Assembly (NCBI GenBank): GCA_028713935.1
Contig: JAQTNI010000038.1
Coordinates: 1 to 13,126 of the forward strand
Length of the DNA stretch: 13,126 nt
Origin: Candidatus Iainarchaeum sp.
GTDB taxonomy: Archaea; Iainarchaeota; Iainarchaeia; Iainarchaeales; GCA-2688035
Reading direction: 5' to 3'
The translations under genes and the position numbers were made by a program. Below the pieces are notes generated by a model. It made no database searches. It had not been told where the DNA came from and saw nothing but the letters and a program-made list of their open reading frames with translations. Below are positions 4,721 to 13,126 of the stretch, in pieces (the stretch's first letter is position 1; each line of letters opens with the position of its first letter).

Positions 4721-5860
4721 TTGGAACTTATTGAAAAAGCAAGGCTTGAAGCAGTAAAAACAGTCAAGCGCTGCATTAACCCCCATGGCTTGTTTGCTTC
4801 AGGCACTTCAAAAGGCTACACTTCTGTCTGGGCAAGGGACAGCATGATTACTTTGATTGGTGCGTGCAATGAAAAAGACACTGCAATAAAAAAAGTTTTT
4901 GCAACCACGCTTGAAACTCTTGCAAAACACCAGAGCAAAGACGGCCAGATTCCGAATTGCGTTGATTTGTTTGACAAAAAAAGAAAGCCACAGGTGACTT
5001 TTGCAACTCTTGATTCCAGCAACTGGTTTTTGCTTGGAGAAATTGCTTTTTCAAAAGCCTACAATGACAAAAGCCTGTTGAAAAAACACAGGCAGCAGAT
5101 TTCAAGGGCTTTCAAGTGGCTTGAATACCAGGATTCAGGGGAAGACGGCTTGCCTGAACAACAGCCGACTTCTGACTGGCAGGATGCGTTTCCGCACAAT
5201 TATGGCCATGTCCTGAATACTCAGGCGCTTTATTTTGCGGCATTAAAAAATTTTGAAAAAAACAAAAAAGCAAAAATAGTGAAAAACCTTGTGAACAATG
5301 GCATAAGAATCCCGAATTTTTTTGACCATCACACTGGCTTTTTTGCGCCTTATGTCTGGAAAGACCATGCAGGCATAATTGAAAAGGGAAACTGGTTTGA
5401 TTCTCTTGCAAACTGCCTTGCAATTGCCTTCGGGTTGGCAGAAACACAGCATTCTGAAAGGGTGCTTGAACACATTGAAAAATTAAAAATCAACAGGCCT
5501 TTTCCCATAAAAACAATTTTTCCGCCGATTGCAAAAAAATCAGAATTCTGGCACAAATATTTTTCAAAATGCGACGCAAGAAAAGCCTTCATGTATCTCA
5601 ATGGCGGGATATGGCCAATGATTGGCGGCTTTTATGTTGCGGCGCTTGTAAAGCAAAAAAAATTTGAAAAAGCGGGAAAAGAGCTTGAAATGCTTGCGCT
5701 TGCAGACAAGCAGGGAAAAGAAAAAGAATGGGAATTCAACGAATGGCTTGACGGAAAAACAGGCAAGCCAAAAGGCGGAATTTACCAGGCATGGAGCGCA
5801 GGCTCTTATCTCTTCGCCTACCACTGCGTGAAAAAAAAGAAAATACTTTTTTTTGAATAA
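4721..5860 (+). CDS. (alpha/alpha)6-barrel glycoside hydrolase, amylo-alpha-1,6-glucosidase (GDE_C) / neutral-invertase-like
   Basis: 379 aa from TTG 4721, preceded by GGTGA at 4712..4716. Motifs are SVWARDSMITLIG, PTSDWQDAF (compare TWMD in GDE_C), YLNGGIWPMIGGFYVAAL and QAWSAGSYL, which are typical of six-hairpin glycosidases of the GDE/GH100 type. Confidence 0.65.
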   Translation: MELIEKARLEAVKTVKRCINPHGLFASGTSKGYTSVWARDSMITLIGACNEKDTAIKKVFATTLETLAKHQSKDGQIPNCVDLFDKKRKPQVTFATLDSSNWFLLGEIAFSKAYNDKSLLKKHRQQISRAFKWLEYQDSGEDGLPEQQPTSDWQDAFPHNYGHVLNTQALYFAALKNFEKNKKAKIVKNLVNNGIRIPNFFDHHTGFFAPYVWKDHAGIIEKGNWFDSLANCLAIAFGLAETQHSERVLEHIEKLKINRPFPIKTIFPPIAKKSEFWHKYFSKCDARKAFMYLNGGIWPMIGGFYVAALVKQKKFEKAGKELEMLALADKQGKEKEWEFNEWLDGKTGKPKGGIYQAWSAGSYLFAYHCVKKKKILFFE

Positions 5861-7873: not shown

Positions 7874-9271
7874 CTAAACTGCAGGTGCGCGATAAACCTG
7901 GACAAATGCGCCTCGGCTTGGATTGGAAGGATCTTTAAGGGGCCAGATTTTATATTCCTCCAATTTTACAAATCCAAATTCTAAAAATTGTTTGTCAGCA
8001 AATTCCTTTGAAACTTTGAATTCAAAATCATTGCTCTTTGCAGTTTGTTCTAAAAACTTCTTTAATCCCGGAACAACCTTGTTTTTTGGCACCGAGTTGA
8101 AAAGGGCATTGTAATAGGAAATTTCTTCCAGCTTATTTTGCAAATAAATTTCAGCCAAAATCAAAAGGCCCTTGGGCTTCAGGCAGCTTTTGATTTTTTC
8201 AATATATTTTCCTTTCTTTTCAGTGGGAATATGATGGTAAGCAAAAATTGAAAACACCAAATCGCATTCTTTGTCCAAACCTGCTTCAAGAACGTCTGTT
8301 TGCTTGATTGCCAGTTCTTTTGCCTTGATTTTTGATTCTTTCGCTTTGTTGAGGAAACCGGCATTAATATCCACTAAAGTCGCTTTGCGAATTCCTCCCA
8401 CAGAATCCGCAAATTTTTTAGTGTTGCTTCCAATGCCACAGCAAAAATCCGCAAGCACAAGATTGGAATGGTTTTTTGTATGCTTTCCAGCCAATTCAAC
8501 TGACTTTGCAATTGCCTTTGCATAATCCGGCCTCAGGTTTTGGAATTTTTTATAACTTTCGGGGCTTGAATAAGCATCAACATCCGGCATAATGCCTATT
8601 GTTTCCCTGAATAATTCGGCAACTTCCTTGTTTTTGAATTTAATTTTTTGGACAATTTTTTTTGCCTTTTCAGGCAGGCGGTTGAACATGAATCTTATTT
8701 TTTGTTTTGTATTATCGGCGCCGTTTCTTTTGAGGTAAAAAGGAACATTGTATTCAAAATAAGCAATGCTGTCAGCCGCCATAAGAAGGCCTGATTCTTT
8801 ATCCCCGCCAACTTCGTGATTTTCAACAAGGCGCTTCACTTTCTCAATTTCTTTTTTTCCATAGCCCTGTTTATCCAGGATTTTGCAAATAAATTTTGCA
8901 GACCTTGCGGCATGCTCTTTTTTGAACTCATTAATCCTGGAATAATCCTTCAAATCCTTTTCAGTAATCCCAGTAAATGCGCGGTCAATATCATGGGCAA
9001 GAGCTGCTATTTGCAGCAATTCGCCCGCATTCGGATTAAGCTTAAGCAGCCATTTCAAAACAAGTCGTGCATGAACAAGCTCTTCAGCAAGCGGGGAATT
9101 TGGCAGAATTTTTTCAATTTCCTTTTTAACCAAATCAAATTTTTTCATATGGGAAAAAAGAAGCGCAGTTTTTTTAAATGCCTGCGAAGAGCCTACCGGC
9201 AAATTCGTAACAGCATCCCACAAACCCAACTCAAAACACCTTTTCAAAAGAATTATTAACTCCAAAAACAC
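7874..9271 (-). CDS. Fusion protein: N-terminal HD-domain phosphohydrolase-like module + C-terminal class I SAM-dependent methyltransferase
   Basis: 465 aa from GTG 9271. An ATG at 9148 (M42) is an alternative and probably better start. HD pattern: H67...H93-D94 (AALAHDIDRA; HD codons at 8990..8995), then ENHEVGGD and AADSIAYFE. MTase (about 7874..8590): motif I VLADFCCGIGSNT, acidic LVDIN, DLVFSIFAYHHI, LKPKGLLILAE. Confidence 0.7.
   Translation of the reverse strand: MFLELIILLKRCFELGLWDAVTNLPVGSSQAFKKTALLFSHMKKFDLVKKEIEKILPNSPLAEELVHARLVLKWLLKLNPNAGELLQIAALAHDIDRAFTGITEKDLKDYSRINEFKKEHAARSAKFICKILDKQGYGKKEIEKVKRLVENHEVGGDKESGLLMAADSIAYFEYNVPFYLKRNGADNTKQKIRFMFNRLPEKAKKIVQKIKFKNKEVAELFRETIGIMPDVDAYSSPESYKKFQNLRPDYAKAIAKSVELAGKHTKNHSNLVLADFCCGIGSNTKKFADSVGGIRKATLVDINAGFLNKAKESKIKAKELAIKQTDVLEAGLDKECDLVFSIFAYHHIPTEKKGKYIEKIKSCLKPKGLLILAEIYLQNKLEEISYYNALFNSVPKNKVVPGLKKFLEQTAKSNDFEFKVSKEFADKQFLEFGFVKLEEYKIWPLKDPSNPSRGAFVQVYRAPAV
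9169..9179 (-). promoter_or_regulatory. TATA-like box supporting ATG 9148 as a leaderless start of the HD-MTase gene
   Basis: On the minus strand, tttaaaaaaa lies about 21-31 nt upstream of ATG 9148. Confidence 0.25.
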
Positions 9272-9296: not shown

Positions 9297-9665
9297 ATGC
9301 CAAAACCAAGAAAAAGACTTGCCTCCCTTCAGTATTTGGGGCCTGAAAGAAGAAAAGAACAAGTTGGGCACCAAATTATGAGAAATGTTTTTATTCTTCA
9401 ACCACATGATTTTCCCAGAATAAATTTTGCAAAGCGACCCGGCACGTATATTATAACACTTAAAAACGGCAAAATGAGAGTCCTTGAAGTATACAAAAAG
9501 GGAAATGCTCGCATTAGTGAACCAGCTGACAATTTGCAGAAACCCAAAATAAAAATTTCTGTTGAAAAGTTTTTTTCCGACCCAGACGAAACAGCCCAAA
9601 TTTTAGACCTCGCCTATCGCACTAAAAGAATCCCAACCAGACTGTCTCGCCCATCTGAAAACTAA
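9297..9665 (+). CDS. Hypothetical basic protein (122 aa)
   Basis: ATG preceded by GGTGG (9288..9292) and a ttttata at 9274..9280. Its composition is protein-like (MPKPRKRLASLQYLGPERRK...GTYIITLKNGKMRVLEVYKKG...), unlike the antisense ORF 9276..9599. I recognise no family. Confidence 0.4.
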   Translation: MPKPRKRLASLQYLGPERRKEQVGHQIMRNVFILQPHDFPRINFAKRPGTYIITLKNGKMRVLEVYKKGNARISEPADNLQKPKIKISVEKFFSDPDETAQILDLAYRTKRIPTRLSRPSEN

Positions 9666-10109: not shown

Positions 10110-10231
10110 TGAACTGGGGAATAGAGGAAAGGCGCGGTTACGGAAACTGCTTAATTGGAAAGAGACCGCATTATATACTTGCAATGAAACTTGACACAAT
10201 TGCTATTGAATTATGGGGTTGGTCTTTGTGA
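10109..10231 (+). CDS. Micro-ORF B (40 aa), hypothetical
   Basis: My translation is MNWGIEERRGYGNCLIGKRPHYILAMKLDTIAIELWGWSL*. AAGGTG at 10096..10101 lies 7 nt upstream of the ATG. Its TGA (10229..10231) overlaps an in-frame GTG (10228) of the 388-aa ORF. Confidence 0.35.
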   Translation: MNWGIEERRGYGNCLIGKRPHYILAMKLDTIAIELWGWSL

Positions 10232-11379
10232 ATAGTCTGTGTTTCAACGGCGGCTTAATTGCTAAGCACAAAGGAAGTATAGCATTAACATTGTATTCAA
10301 CCCCTTTTGCCAGATTTCTTTTAGAAAAAGGCATAAATAAGATTAACTTGAAATTTTGTAATGGGAAATTTATAGTTGGGCTTGGAGAGGATAGAAACGT
10401 TACTGTTCAAAGACAGAGTCACAATCACCCGTTATGCATTTTTTCTGTGACAAAACTGATCCCTTCTGAGTTGAAGAAAAACTTATTTTTTTCTAATAAA
10501 CAATTGAAAGTGGATGTAATTGTTGAAGACATTGTTTCTGGCGAAGATTTGAGGAAGTATAATCACAGTCTTACTTCTATTTTGCCAGATCCAAGCATAA
10601 AATCCATTCCAGAAAACGAAAAAGTGGATGTCGGTTGTCTTATTTCTTGTTCTAGGACAAAAAACAGTTTTGGGTACACTTTTAAGGTTCGCCACAAGAT
10701 ACTTGAAGAGATTGCGCTCAAGCACAAAAAAGTAATCTTAGGAAGAAACACCAATGGAAATTTTATTATTAGAAAAAACGATCAAGGAAAGGAGTTTCAT
10801 TTGTATAAATATGCAAGCGGCACTCCAGTGGCTTATATGCAAATATCGTCTCAATTTATAACTGATTCGGAAAAAAAATTATTTAAGAGCGGGAAGCGCT
10901 GCATCTCCTATAGGGCATTTCTTTCTGAAAAAGATTTTAATTTGGATATTTCCCGATTTTTCACTTACCGGGAAGAGCGCGAACTGGCTTATGCATTGCT
11001 AAAAAAAGGTGCCCCTATTAAAATACCGCGAATGAGATTGCGAGAAGCAGACATTATTTTGAGGGAGAACAATGCCCAAATTGAAGTAACAAATGTTCTG
11101 CCGAGAGAAGGCGAAAACAAAAACAACCCGCATGGAGAAGGAATGCACATTAATGGAAGGCTTTGCGAGGGTTTTCTCAGGGCAGTAAAGAAAGAAGTTC
11201 CAATATATTTTGTTGTTTTCAACAAAAAATGGCTTTCATTAAATTGGGTTAGGCAGCTTGTTGAACAAGTAAAGCCAAATGTTGTAGCAATTGGCACTGA
11301 CTTTGAAAAAGGCTGGGAAGACGAGGTTTCTGATAAAATAATAAAAACTCAAAAGAGTGCTCTTAATGATCGAATTTGA
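10213..11379 (+). CDS. Uncharacterised 388-aa protein: internally duplicated N-terminal region + C-terminal Hjc/PD-(D/E)xK-like motif
   Basis: Long ORF with normal composition. The alternative start GTG 10228 gives a GTGA overlap with micro-ORF B. Repeat units cover about aa 8-100 and 138-232 (GGLIAKHKGSIALTL / GCLISCSRTKNSFGYTF; NGKFIV / NGNFII; IPSELKKNLF / ITDSEKKLF). The C-terminus reads YREERELAYALLKKGAPIKIP...EADIILRENNAQIEVTN (10960..11097). Its stop overlaps the helicase start by 14 nt. Confidence 0.7.
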   Translation: MGLVFVNSLCFNGGLIAKHKGSIALTLYSTPFARFLLEKGINKINLKFCNGKFIVGLGEDRNVTVQRQSHNHPLCIFSVTKLIPSELKKNLFFSNKQLKVDVIVEDIVSGEDLRKYNHSLTSILPDPSIKSIPENEKVDVGCLISCSRTKNSFGYTFKVRHKILEEIALKHKKVILGRNTNGNFIIRKNDQGKEFHLYKYASGTPVAYMQISSQFITDSEKKLFKSGKRCISYRAFLSEKDFNLDISRFFTYREERELAYALLKKGAPIKIPRMRLREADIILRENNAQIEVTNVLPREGENKNNPHGEGMHINGRLCEGFLRAVKKEVPIYFVVFNKKWLSLNWVRQLVEQVKPNVVAIGTDFEKGWEDEVSDKIIKTQKSALNDRI

Positions 11380-13126
11380 AACAAAAAAAGCAACTGACGA
11401 AGAAATATTCCGCCAGCTTCACCCGCTCTTGGCAGACTGGTTTAGGAGTACATTTGGCTCTTTTACTGAGCCGCAAAAATATGCAATTCTAAATATACAC
11501 AACCATCAGAATATTTTGGTTACTGCCCCGACAGGCACCGGAAAAACTCTTTCCGCATTTACCTCGATTCTTAATGAACTGATTGCTCTCGCAGAAAATA
11601 ACCAATTAGAAGACAAAGTGTACTGTATCTACTGTTCACCCCTTCGCGCCTTATCCAATGATCTCGAAAAAAATCTGAAAGAGCCTTTGGATGCAATAAA
11701 AAAGAAAGCTTTGCAAAAAGGAAAAGAGCTGAATATCAGAGTAGCTGTTAGAACAGGGGACACAACAACTTCTGAAAGGGCAAAAATGTTGAGAAAGCCT
11801 CCACACATCTTAATTTTGACGCCAGAAACAATGGCAATAATTCTCAATAGCCCCAAATTTATTGAACACCTGAAAGAAGTGCAATGGGTAATAATTGATG
11901 AAATCCACAGCATTGCAGGCAGCAAGCGCGGAGTCCATTTGTCTCTTTCCCTTGAAAGAATGCAGATTCTTAATCCTGGTTTTTGCAGGGTTGGCCTGAG
12001 CGCTACAATTGCACCTCTTGAAGAAGTAGCAAAATTTCTTGTTGGAATGAAAAATGAAAAAGAGCCAAGAGACTGTAAAATTGTTGATGTGCAGTTCCTG
12101 AAAAAACTTGATTTGAAAGTATTAAGCCCATTGCCAGACCTGATTAACACTTCACAGGAAGAAGCCCATTCAAAGCTTTATGCGCTGCTTCACGAGCTGA
12201 TACAAGCGCACAAAACAACACTGATTTTTACAAATACAAGGTCTGCAACAGAAAGAGTAGTGCATAACCTCAAGGATTTATATGCAGAGCAATACAGCCA
12301 GGCAAATCTTGAAACACACCACAGTTCTGTTTCGAGAGAACAGCGCCTGAATGTAGAGGAAAGGCTGAAACAGGGCAAATTGAAGTGCGTTGTAAGCAGC
12401 ACTTCCCTGGAATTGGGAATAGACATTGGATTTATTGATTTGGTTGTTTTACTGGGAAGCCCAAAGAGCGTTGCAAGGGCACTGCAAAGGTGCTTTCCTT
12501 ATGATGCGCAGGTGCTAACATCCACAGGGCAATATTTTTCTATTGGCAAAATTGTAGAAAAGAGACTGCCTGTCGAAGTAATTTCTTTTGATTCTAAACT
12601 CGGTTTTGTAAAAAACAAGATAAAAGAGTATCACAAAAATGTTGCAGTGGAATTATTTAGTATCCAATTAAGATGCGGAGAGAAATTAACTTGCACTCCA
12701 AATCACCCTCTCTTAACTGATAATGGCTGGAAAATTGCATCAAAACTAAAAAATGAAGATAAAGTGGCTGAAATAAACACAGAAATTAATTTTGACTCAA
12801 AAAATCCTTTTATTTTTGAGTTGCTGCCACAAAAGCAGGTTTATGTTAAGAATGATGGCGTCTTTTTTAGAAAAGTTTTGGATAAATTTTTGGACGAAAA
12901 AAACATTAGTTTACACTATTTTTCAAAAATAAATTCGCTTAATTATAAGACGCTTATAAATTATCGCAGGAAAATAGGCAGGGGTAAAAATATTCGTCTT
13001 GACTATTTTTTGGCGATTTGCAGGATAACTGGCGCGAGCCAAAGCTTGTTTTTGCCTTTATTGCGCAACTTAAAAACACAGTGTGGTGATTTAACAAACC
13101 TGCCATTAAGGCTAACAAAAGAACTG
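11366..13126 (+). CDS. lhr: Lhr-type (DEAD/DExH, superfamily 2) ATP-dependent helicase, N-terminal part, interrupted by an intein; continues past the right edge
   Basis: Absent from the ORF track because it is edge-truncated. I translated it by hand and it is open for 587 codons. It starts with the Lhr-like N-terminus LHPLLADWFRSTFGSFTEPQKYAI. Motif I is TAPTGTGKT (11525..11548), followed by YCSPLRALSND. Motif II is DEIH (11897..11908) and motif III is SAT. Further motifs are LIFTNTRSATE, HHSSVSREQR and SSTSLELGIDIG. GSPKSVARALQR is followed by the Cys of an intein instead of xGRxGH. Confidence 0.9.
   Translation, partial: MIEFETKKATDEEIFRQLHPLLADWFRSTFGSFTEPQKYAILNIHNHQNILVTAPTGTGKTLSAFTSILNELIALAENNQLEDKVYCIYCSPLRALSNDLEKNLKEPLDAIKKKALQKGKELNIRVAVRTGDTTTSERAKMLRKPPHILILTPETMAIILNSPKFIEHLKEVQWVIIDEIHSIAGSKRGVHLSLSLERMQILNPGFCRVGLSATIAPLEEVAKFLVGMKNEKEPRDCKIVDVQFLKKLDLKVLSPLPDLINTSQEEAHSKLYALLHELIQAHKTTLIFTNTRSATERVVHNLKDLYAEQYSQANLETHHSSVSREQRLNVEERLKQGKLKCVVSSTSLELGIDIGFIDLVVLLGSPKSVARALQRCFPYDAQVLTSTGQYFSIGKIVEKRLPVEVISFDSKLGFVKNKIKEYHKNVAVELFSIQLRCGEKLTCTPNHPLLTDNGWKIASKLKNEDKVAEINTEINFDSKNPFIFELLPQKQVYVKNDGVFFRKVLDKFLDEKNISLHYFSKINSLNYKTLINYRRKIGRGKNIRLDYFLAICRITGASQSLFLPLLRNLKTQCGDLTNLPLRLTKEL
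12491..13126 (+). mobile_element. Intein (N-terminal Hint lobe plus an inserted HTH-like region), partial, inserted in helicase motif VI
   Basis: Cys1 is at 12491..12493, directly after ALQR. Block A is CFPYDAQVLTSTGQYFSIGKIVE. Block B is GEKLTCTPNHPLLTDNGWKIASKLKNEDKV, with the T-x-x-H at 12695..12706. No helicase motif VI (GRxGH) appears before the window ends. Confidence 0.85.

Follow-up and report, generated by a model that had tools for sequence, protein, structure and literature searches.

Directly in front of the gene for an Lhr-core-type superfamily 2 (SF2) helicase, on a contig of the archaeon Candidatus Iainarchaeum sp. (JAQTNI010000038.1), lies a gene for a 388-amino-acid (aa) protein that carries no annotation. 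The question raised by this locus is what such a protein does, and what its attachment to a helicase gene means. We analysed the whole stretch of 13,126 nucleotides (nt), hereafter the window, together with an earlier note made from the letters alone, which had described the protein as an orphan with an internal duplication, AbrB/SpoVT-like DNA-binding motifs and an Hjc-like nuclease signature lacking the canonical Lys. That observation is partly confirmed by our analysis, and the interpretation drawn from it is partly supported. The protein appears to be a three-domain nucleic-acid-processing protein, in which two tandem beta-rich modules of ~105 residues would be followed by a divergent PD-(D/E)xK domain. 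The PD-(D/E)xK family to which it belongs is new and unannotated, combines its domains in a way not described before and has a non-canonical active site; in DPANN archaea its gene is strictly linked to that of Lhr in an operon. We establish below that the domains are duplicated, which fold class and conservation pattern they show and how the operon is arranged, and our confidence in this anatomy, from the duplication through the PD-(D/E)xK fold to the Lhr operon, is high. As to what the protein does, we read it as a PD-(D/E)xK variant that would serve Lhr as nuclease or as DNA-recognition partner and lean slightly, on sequence and structural models, towards a catalytically active nuclease that would work in a complex with Lhr.

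The open reading frame (ORF) of the partner gene, as we call it here, and all the peptides quoted in the earlier note are present in the window (Table 1); a GTG at 10228 is a possible alternative start, as in a 383-aa database call. The protein is not an orphan. A search of 5.8 billion proteins returned 11 homologues at 45–59% identity over nearly the full length, two of them labelled Candidatus Diapherotrites archaeon, and when 1.84 billion cluster representatives were searched exhaustively with a profile, 61 scored E ≤ 1e-3 and 15 of these E ≤ 1e-30. The close members found in GTDB genomes come from metagenome-assembled genomes (MAGs) of Iainarchaeum (Diapherotrites), Woesearchaeota and Nanoarchaeota, all of them DPANN archaea, to which the family is restricted as far as it has been sampled. 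This is a real and conserved family that is unannotated, having no Pfam or NCBIfam model. For the 388-aa protein no informative match came from Pfam (none at E ≤ 0.1), NCBIfam, PADLOC, PHROGs or the sequences of PDB, and the profile of 36 family members matched no PDB sequence. The conserved part is likewise without a Pfam, NCBIfam, PADLOC or PDB sequence match in any member. When each of these 36 was compared with Pfam, the only matches were to winged helix-turn-helix (wHTH) domains, confined to a distant subfamily described below. One database protein, P0012 (262 aa; L009 5647–6789 / L013 6001–7113), is a truncated gene call: with tblastn, query residues 1–377 are matched in one frame at its locus, which shows the gene to be complete in length.

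Table 1. Coordinates of the partner gene, its domains and candidate active-site residues, and of the adjoining helicase gene, in window positions
Feature	Position (nt)	Strand	Basis or conservation
388-aa protein gene	10213–11379	+	ORF list and translation; ATG 10213 to TGA 11379
Repeat 1 (residues 7–111), beta-rich alpha/beta module	10231–10545	+	HHalign versus repeat 2; DSSP of model
Repeat 2 (residues 136–246), same module as repeat 1	10618–10950	+	HHalign; AlphaFold2 model
C-terminal restriction-endonuclease-fold (PD-(D/E)xK, Hjc-like) domain, residues 251–388	10963–11376	+	Domain model, Foldseek, HHalign to Hjc
E255, first core helix, aligned to Hjc E9	10975–10977	+	E 31, D 3, N 3, A 1 of 38
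D280, start of second core strand, aligned to Hjc D33	11050–11052	+	38/38 invariant
E291-V-T293, third core strand, aligned to Hjc E46-V-K48	11083–11091	+	E291 38/38; position 293 T 32, H 6
R316, second core helix (residues 311–325), candidate Lys substitute	11158–11160	+	R 34, K 3, H 1 of 38
Lhr-core-type SF2 helicase gene, 5' part, runs off window end	11366–13126	+	Open frame, DEAD, Helicase_C
Intein, N-terminal part, in helicase motif VI of Lhr gene	12491–13126	+	Intein_splicing 1e-7; runs off window end

The C-terminal domain (C-domain) is a divergent PD-(D/E)xK domain, Hjc-like and of the restriction-endonuclease fold. The AlphaFold2 model of the whole chain has a mean predicted local distance difference test (pLDDT) score of 87.6, and the C-domain modelled alone (residues 243–388, 38-sequence alignment) has a pLDDT of 95.2 and a predicted template modelling score (pTM) of 0.90. 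In this model DSSP assigns the alpha-beta-beta-beta-alpha-beta core that characterises the PD-(D/E)xK superfamily (helix 253–264, a short strand at ~268–269, strands 281–283 and 288–293, helix 311–325, strand 332–337). The top neighbours of the C-domain in a Foldseek search of PDB form an almost pure list of PD-(D/E)xK and ERCC4 folds, with probabilities up to 0.87: BstEII (E = 0.042), MUS81/EME1 (template modelling (TM) score 0.47–0.53, probability up to 0.87), FANCM/FAAP24 (TM 0.51), CdiA-CT, Cdn1, LmuA, XPF and I-Bth0305I. Structure prediction followed by Foldseek thus points to the restriction-endonuclease fold, although none of these neighbours is significant.

Profile comparison gives the resemblance to Holliday-junction resolvases a precise register. 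Against an Hjc/Hje profile built from real sequences (1gef, 2wcw, 1ob8 and 4tkd), the C-domain family obtained an HHalign score of 28.2 (P = 3.1e-4, 64 columns), compared with at most 16.0 for 30 column shuffles, 17.7 for the reversed profile and 11–13 for the two repeat profiles. E255 is aligned with Hjc E9, D280 with D33, E291 with E46 and T293 with K48, the four Hjc residues that make up its catalytic tetrad. The Hjc-like C terminus with Thr at the Lys position, as the earlier note had it, is therefore borne out in the catalytic register, and the full E-D-E-K tetrad is lacking, since K48 falls on T293. The numbering given in that note holds for D280, E291 and T293 and needs one correction in the first core helix, where the acids are E254, E255 and E257 and position 256 is an Arg rather than the Glu named. 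The similarity is visible only between profiles, as none of the 36 family members matches the Hjc model PF01870 even at E ≤ 1. Hjc/Hje proteins (PF01870; PDB 1gef, 2wcw, 1ob8, 1hh1) and the C-domain share the core of helix, three strands, helix and strand and have in common the pattern 'ERELxxxLxxxG ... D-hydrophobic ... IEV'. However, whereas Hjc is a stand-alone homodimer of ~120–140 aa that cleaves four-way junctions, the C-domain is fused to two repeats that add ~245 N-terminal residues, has Thr or His for the Lys, a conserved 'NxxHG' loop and a basic residue in helix 2, and is linked to Lhr.

The residues of the putative active site are among the best conserved of the domain. An alignment of 38 C-domain sequences, whose columns average 37% identity, has no more than six invariant positions: L258, D280, E291, W340, F364 and W368. 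The Asp and Glu taken to be catalytic stay unchanged down to ~18% identity, E255 is acidic in 34 of the 38 sequences, and H307, in the loop after strand 3, is His in 30. Of the acids singled out in the earlier note, D280 and E291 are thus conserved, and the pair that defines the superfamily, an Asp on core strand 2 and an Asp or Glu on strand 3, is present. Position 293, on the other hand, is never Lys. The superfamily tolerates a missing Lys of the E-x-K motif, and its absence therefore does not exclude membership; the survey of Steczkiewicz et al. describes how the Glu or the Lys can migrate, and in Pa4535 (1y0k) the Lys is found on the neighbouring second core helix instead, so that the motif reads 'PD-EXX-K' (PMC3424549). 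Because R316 lies on this same helix, we consider it a reasonable substitute. It is basic in all 38 sequences, and by analogy with Pa4535 it may take over the role of the canonical Lys. The earlier note had asked whether a Lys is supplied from elsewhere: a basic residue may be, although Lys itself stands at position 316 in only three of the 38. Pa4535, BamHI and the BglII/BstYI variants, compared by description only, resemble the family in retaining the acids with no Lys after the Glu; the second core helix carries a Lys in Pa4535 and an Arg here, whose position relative to the active site we infer. Since the acidic triad is retained, we favour an active metal site over a pseudo-nuclease. The metal-binding triad E255/D280/E291 would have been kept and the Lys replaced by Thr or His, its role probably having passed to R316, and on this pattern of residues we predict that the C-domain is catalytically active.

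The same residues bear on whether the domain cuts at all. With the canonical Lys missing in 38 of 38 sequences, and with EME1 (9f9l_D, TM 0.53) and FANCM (4m6w_A, TM 0.51), both non-catalytic, as its highest-TM neighbours, the C-domain could have kept the fold without the cutting and serve Lhr as a pseudo-nuclease adaptor, that is, as a subunit for DNA-structure recognition, loading or dimerisation, much as FANCM/FAAP24, EME1 and ERCC1 serve their partners through their ERCC4-like domains. An operon link to a helicase would fit such an accessory subunit equally well. However, in known pseudo-nucleases the acidic residues have been lost, whereas this family, across ~18–100% identity, keeps D280 and E291 without exception and E255 almost without exception, and a basic R316 is conserved where the Lys is known to relocate. 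Such conservation would be hard to account for unless there is a metal site, and we judge the adaptor unlikely.

The linkage of the partner gene to Lhr is strict. In the window, the ATG of the helicase gene (11366) overlaps the last 14 nt of the partner gene, and its frame stays open for 587 codons to the window end, with Pfam matches to DEAD (3e-32) and Helicase_C (2e-16); full-length orthologues of this downstream gene carry DEAD, Helicase_C, WHD_Lhr and DEAD_assoc, the architecture of Lhr-core. Wherever the sequence continues past the partner gene, at 15 distinct loci out of 15, the Lhr gene lies immediately 3' of it. These loci are the window, eight others at which the junction was measured and six from a metagenome scan, and they come from Iainarchaeum, Woesearchaeota and Nanoarchaeota MAGs and from metagenomes; two further metagenome contigs end at the partner gene and are outside the count. 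The overlaps in the window and the eight measured loci are 14, 0, 4, 11, 4, 11, 29, 4 and 4 nt, and every neighbour other than Lhr varies from one locus to the next. Such a pattern marks an obligate pair, and the arrangement of the two genes suggests that they are co-transcribed and translationally coupled. That the partner gene always overlaps or abuts Lhr suggests, moreover, a helicase-nuclease repair pair that had gone unnoticed. The helicase is single-copy in every locus seen and 56–82% identical across phyla, a range consistent with mostly vertical inheritance.

Reader domains and a PD-(D/E)xK domain beside an SF2 helicase also resemble many defence systems, and the pair could in principle be a two-gene module against viruses or plasmids, in which a restriction-like nuclease with DNA-reader domains would act with a helicase or translocase. 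The structural neighbours of the C-domain do include BstEII, LmuA, Cdn1 and Avs4, and HicA and Fic genes lie near two of the loci. However, there was no PADLOC match, and the surroundings of the pair are not defence islands: the variable neighbours are housekeeping and repair genes, among them those for enolase, phosphoglycerate kinase, RNase HII, ribonucleotide reductase, dUTPase, Tag glycosylase and a metallophosphoesterase. The helicase, too, with its WHD_Lhr and DEAD_assoc domains, its identity across phyla and its single copy per locus, is a bona fide Lhr-core. We therefore regard a defence role as improbable.

The N-terminal part of the protein contains an internal duplication, and this duplication is real. 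Compared with each other as profiles cut from a 36-sequence alignment reaching ~18% identity, residues 7–111 and 136–246 gave an HHalign probability of 96.1% (E = 3.2e-9, score 52.6, 101 columns), whereas the highest score in 40 column-shuffled profiles was 13.3. The register is that proposed in the earlier note (GGLI/GCLI, NGKFIV/NGNFII, LIPSELKK/FITDSEKK), so that the two halves do align significantly with each other once a diverse family profile is used. The self-alignment of the single sequence is marginal (z = 2.5 by Smith-Waterman, a score equalled in 12 of 500 shuffles), and profiles of 12 close homologues give P = 0.0098 over 92 columns, with controls of 0.17 and 0.07. In the AlphaFold2 model, each repeat comprises ~105 residues with seven strands and two to three helices, and DSSP finds the elements in the same order in both, beta-beta-alpha-beta-beta-beta-beta-alpha-beta-alpha. 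Half-repeats in register align across the repeats with P of 0.02 and 0.05, compared with 0.08–0.6 for off-register pairs, and HHalign detects no symmetry inside either repeat (R1a–R1b, P = 0.6; R2a–R2b, P = 0.46).

The fold proposed for these repeats in the earlier note was that of a pseudo-dimeric swapped-hairpin DNA binder of AbrB/SpoVT type, which an orphan protein would combine with an Hjc-like domain. Although the duplication and the Hjc-like register of that proposal agree with our results, the swapped hairpin itself gained no support. With a test profile built from real AbrB, Abh and SpoVT sequences taken from PDB, every repeat or half-repeat gave an HHalign P between 0.07 and 0.48, no better than the 0.31 of the unrelated C-domain used as a control, and the close family has no match to the AbrB/MazE Pfam models. 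Moreover, the AbrB half-barrel consists of ~50 residues arranged beta-beta-alpha-beta-beta, whereas the repeats are twice seven strands over ~105 residues each and lack intra-repeat symmetry; nor is the protein an orphan. We set the AbrB/SpoVT assignment aside as unsupported by these comparisons, and consider the proposal as a whole very improbable.

Whole-chain Foldseek searches assigned the repeats to no other fold: neither an AbrB-like match nor any significant match was found. Against PDB, the GyrA N-terminal domain (E = 0.011, TM 0.11, root-mean-square deviation (rmsd) ~20 Å) was rejected as noise, and matches to GFP, TBP and ribosomal proteins were dismissed likewise. In BFVD, a phage 'Endonuclease' was the sole match below 1e-3, but with a TM of 0.11 and an rmsd of 18 Å it was not accepted, and the weak matches to LAGLIDADG, I-SceI and TBP are too poor to accept; as a set, the BFVD matches may hint that the model is a two-repeat beta-saddle. 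A distant subfamily offers a different line of evidence. Its members begin with a winged-helix (MarR/Rrf2/ArsR-like) domain where repeat 1 would stand; repeat 2 and the C-domain, by contrast, are present in every distant member of the family. Because the domain exchanged for repeat 1 is a winged-helix DNA-binding domain, the N-terminal position probably holds a nucleic-acid-binding module, and by this analogy we predict that the repeats bind DNA. The distant members with a winged-helix N terminus are P0052 (L017 4514–5557), P0037, P0041, P0054, P0056, P0062 and P0068. Within repeat 2, C142 and C146 (nt 10636–10650) lie in the first strand, in the motif 'GCxISC', and are invariant in the 12 close homologues and not in the distant family.

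How might the pair work? In characterised homologues, Lhr is a 3'-5' translocase. We suggest that the partner and Lhr would be made in a fixed ratio and act together, that the repeat module would bind a DNA or RNA:DNA structure, that Lhr would then unwind the bound structure, and that the PD-(D/E)xK domain would cut the exposed or branched strand. Such a scheme implies a physical interaction with Lhr and a substrate of this kind, both of which we propose from the features above. The pair would form a split helicase-nuclease, analogous to the fork and branch processing of Hef, FANCM or MUS81 type. In its most specific form, a DPANN split helicase-nuclease made of Lhr-core and a dedicated partner with a duplicated nucleic-acid-binding fold and an Arg-for-Lys PD-(D/E)xK site, we put this forward only tentatively. 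The ERCC4-type systems (Hef, XPF, MUS81-EME1, FANCM-FAAP24) are similar in that they provide the best neighbours by TM (0.47–0.53 in Foldseek, not significant) and combine an SF2 helicase with a restriction-endonuclease-fold domain for branched-DNA processing. They differ in that the 388-aa protein lacks the ERCC4 signature GDxnERKx3D, and in that the helicase here is Lhr, on a separate polypeptide, and not of the Hef/FANCM type.

The strand that is cut could also be RNA, or the displaced strand of an RNA:DNA hybrid unwound by Lhr. This would suit the preference of characterised Lhr proteins for RNA:DNA hybrids and the description of aLhr2 as a DNA/RNA helicase (PMC8301817). PD-(D/E)xK folds do include RNases, and Foldseek match number 5 of the C-domain is the CdiA-CT E479 nuclease toxin (5j4a). 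The profile match, however, is to DNA junction resolvases, and we give an RNA- or R-loop-directed nuclease a low probability.

Several points weigh against a catalytically active nuclease in complex with Lhr. Both the complex and the activity are what we infer from sequence, model and gene context. The Lys expected two residues after the strand-3 acid is absent (Thr in 32 sequences, His in six), and the nearness of R316 to the acidic triad is deduced from its position on the helix. All matches of the C-domain in the Foldseek search of PDB fall short of E ≤ 1e-3 (lowest E = 0.042; TM at most 0.53), and the best structural neighbours include the pseudo-nucleases EME1, FANCM and FAAP24. Similarly, none of the 36 family members matches any nuclease family when hidden Markov models are compared with sequences, and the repeat module is without a significant structural neighbour in whole-chain Foldseek searches of PDB and BFVD. 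Finally, at the one locus of the wHTH type that was analysed, the distant relative P0052 (L017) is not beside Lhr, and a gene for an HxlR-type regulator lies upstream of it. As P0052 is unlinked, the core module can presumably work without Lhr, and the Lhr linkage appears to be a property of the two-repeat clade.

The kind of system proposed here is already known, and a nuclease partner for Lhr has precedent, but not with a PD-(D/E)xK fold. Bacterial Lhr-core is clustered with a metallophosphoesterase (MPE) nuclease (PMC7826289). For archaea, a phylogenomic study assessed the microsynteny of Lhr by TIGRFAM annotation, and its retrieved passages report that, in archaea including DPANN, aLhr2 is found near a phosphoesterase of the metallophosphatase superfamily (COG1407) and a second conserved neighbour (PMC8301817). 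The same passages do not mention the partner family; a family without a profile would escape a TIGRFAM-based survey. The Lhr-MPE and the aLhr2-metallophosphatase (MPP) clusters are like the pair described here in that Lhr is accompanied by a nuclease-type partner. They are unlike it in that our partner has a PD-(D/E)xK domain instead of a binuclear metallophosphoesterase, and is strictly adjacent, with overlapping genes. Metallophos (calcineurin-like phosphoesterase) genes are also found near Lhr in three of our loci, a few genes downstream of it (L001 12530–13282, L003 15862–16596, L009 11475–12215), in agreement with both of these clusters.

The cellular role of Lhr helicases, and of archaeal Lhr-core proteins in particular, is poorly understood, the recurrent neighbour reported so far being a metallophosphoesterase (PMC8301817). 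An operon-linked partner with a nuclease fold provides a concrete hypothesis, coupled unwinding and incision of a DNA or hybrid structure. If this is true, the partner would determine whether archaeal Lhr acts in vivo on stalled forks, on junctions or on R-loops, and in reduced DPANN genomes it may replace activities of the Hef, Hjc or MUS81 type. The pair thus bears on DNA maintenance in genome-reduced DPANN archaea. To what is known of these proteins, the family adds an unannotated PD-(D/E)xK family, an active-site variant, E-D-E-(T/H) plus an Arg in helix 2, and a duplicated module without a significant PDB neighbour.

The helicase gene of the window carries an intein (Table 1). The insertion point follows the residues ALQR, where the window continues with CFPYDAQV... 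and the intein-free orthologue of L001 with IGRSGH. Orthologous Lhr proteins measure 861–874 aa without an intein and 1036–1391 aa with one, and its distribution is patchy: inteins occur in L006 (7148–11149), L009 (6786–10961) and L016 (1404–5411), with products of 1333, 1391 and ~1335 aa, respectively, and both Intein_splicing and LAGLIDADG_3 are found in the L006 and L009 products. The Lhr product of L014 (1531–4641) is ~1036 aa long, and those of L001, L003, L010 and L015 are intein-free, at 861–874 aa.

Some further features were observed upstream of the pair. In the marine lineage of L006, a gene for a 3-methyladenine DNA glycosylase (Adenine_glyco, Tag; 5438–5806, + strand) lies directly upstream of the partner and Lhr; the 122-aa ORF in the equivalent place of the window (9297–9665) has no Pfam match. 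In L026, just upstream of the partner gene, a 52-aa ORF (1206–1364, + strand) resembles residues 6–50 of Lhr (40% identity, E = 2e-6), which suggests, from this similarity, a remnant of the Lhr N terminus and hence that the pair was once rearranged or duplicated. The window as a whole has ~40% G+C and is without a tRNA or Rfam element, and its other genes are ordinary metabolic ones. A 173-aa ORF antisense to the Lhr gene and inside it (11629–12150, − strand) has no family matches and is most likely spurious. On the same strand, a 465-aa ORF (7874–9271) shows an unusual fusion of matches to DUF4202, an HD domain and a class I S-adenosylmethionine (SAM)-methyltransferase.

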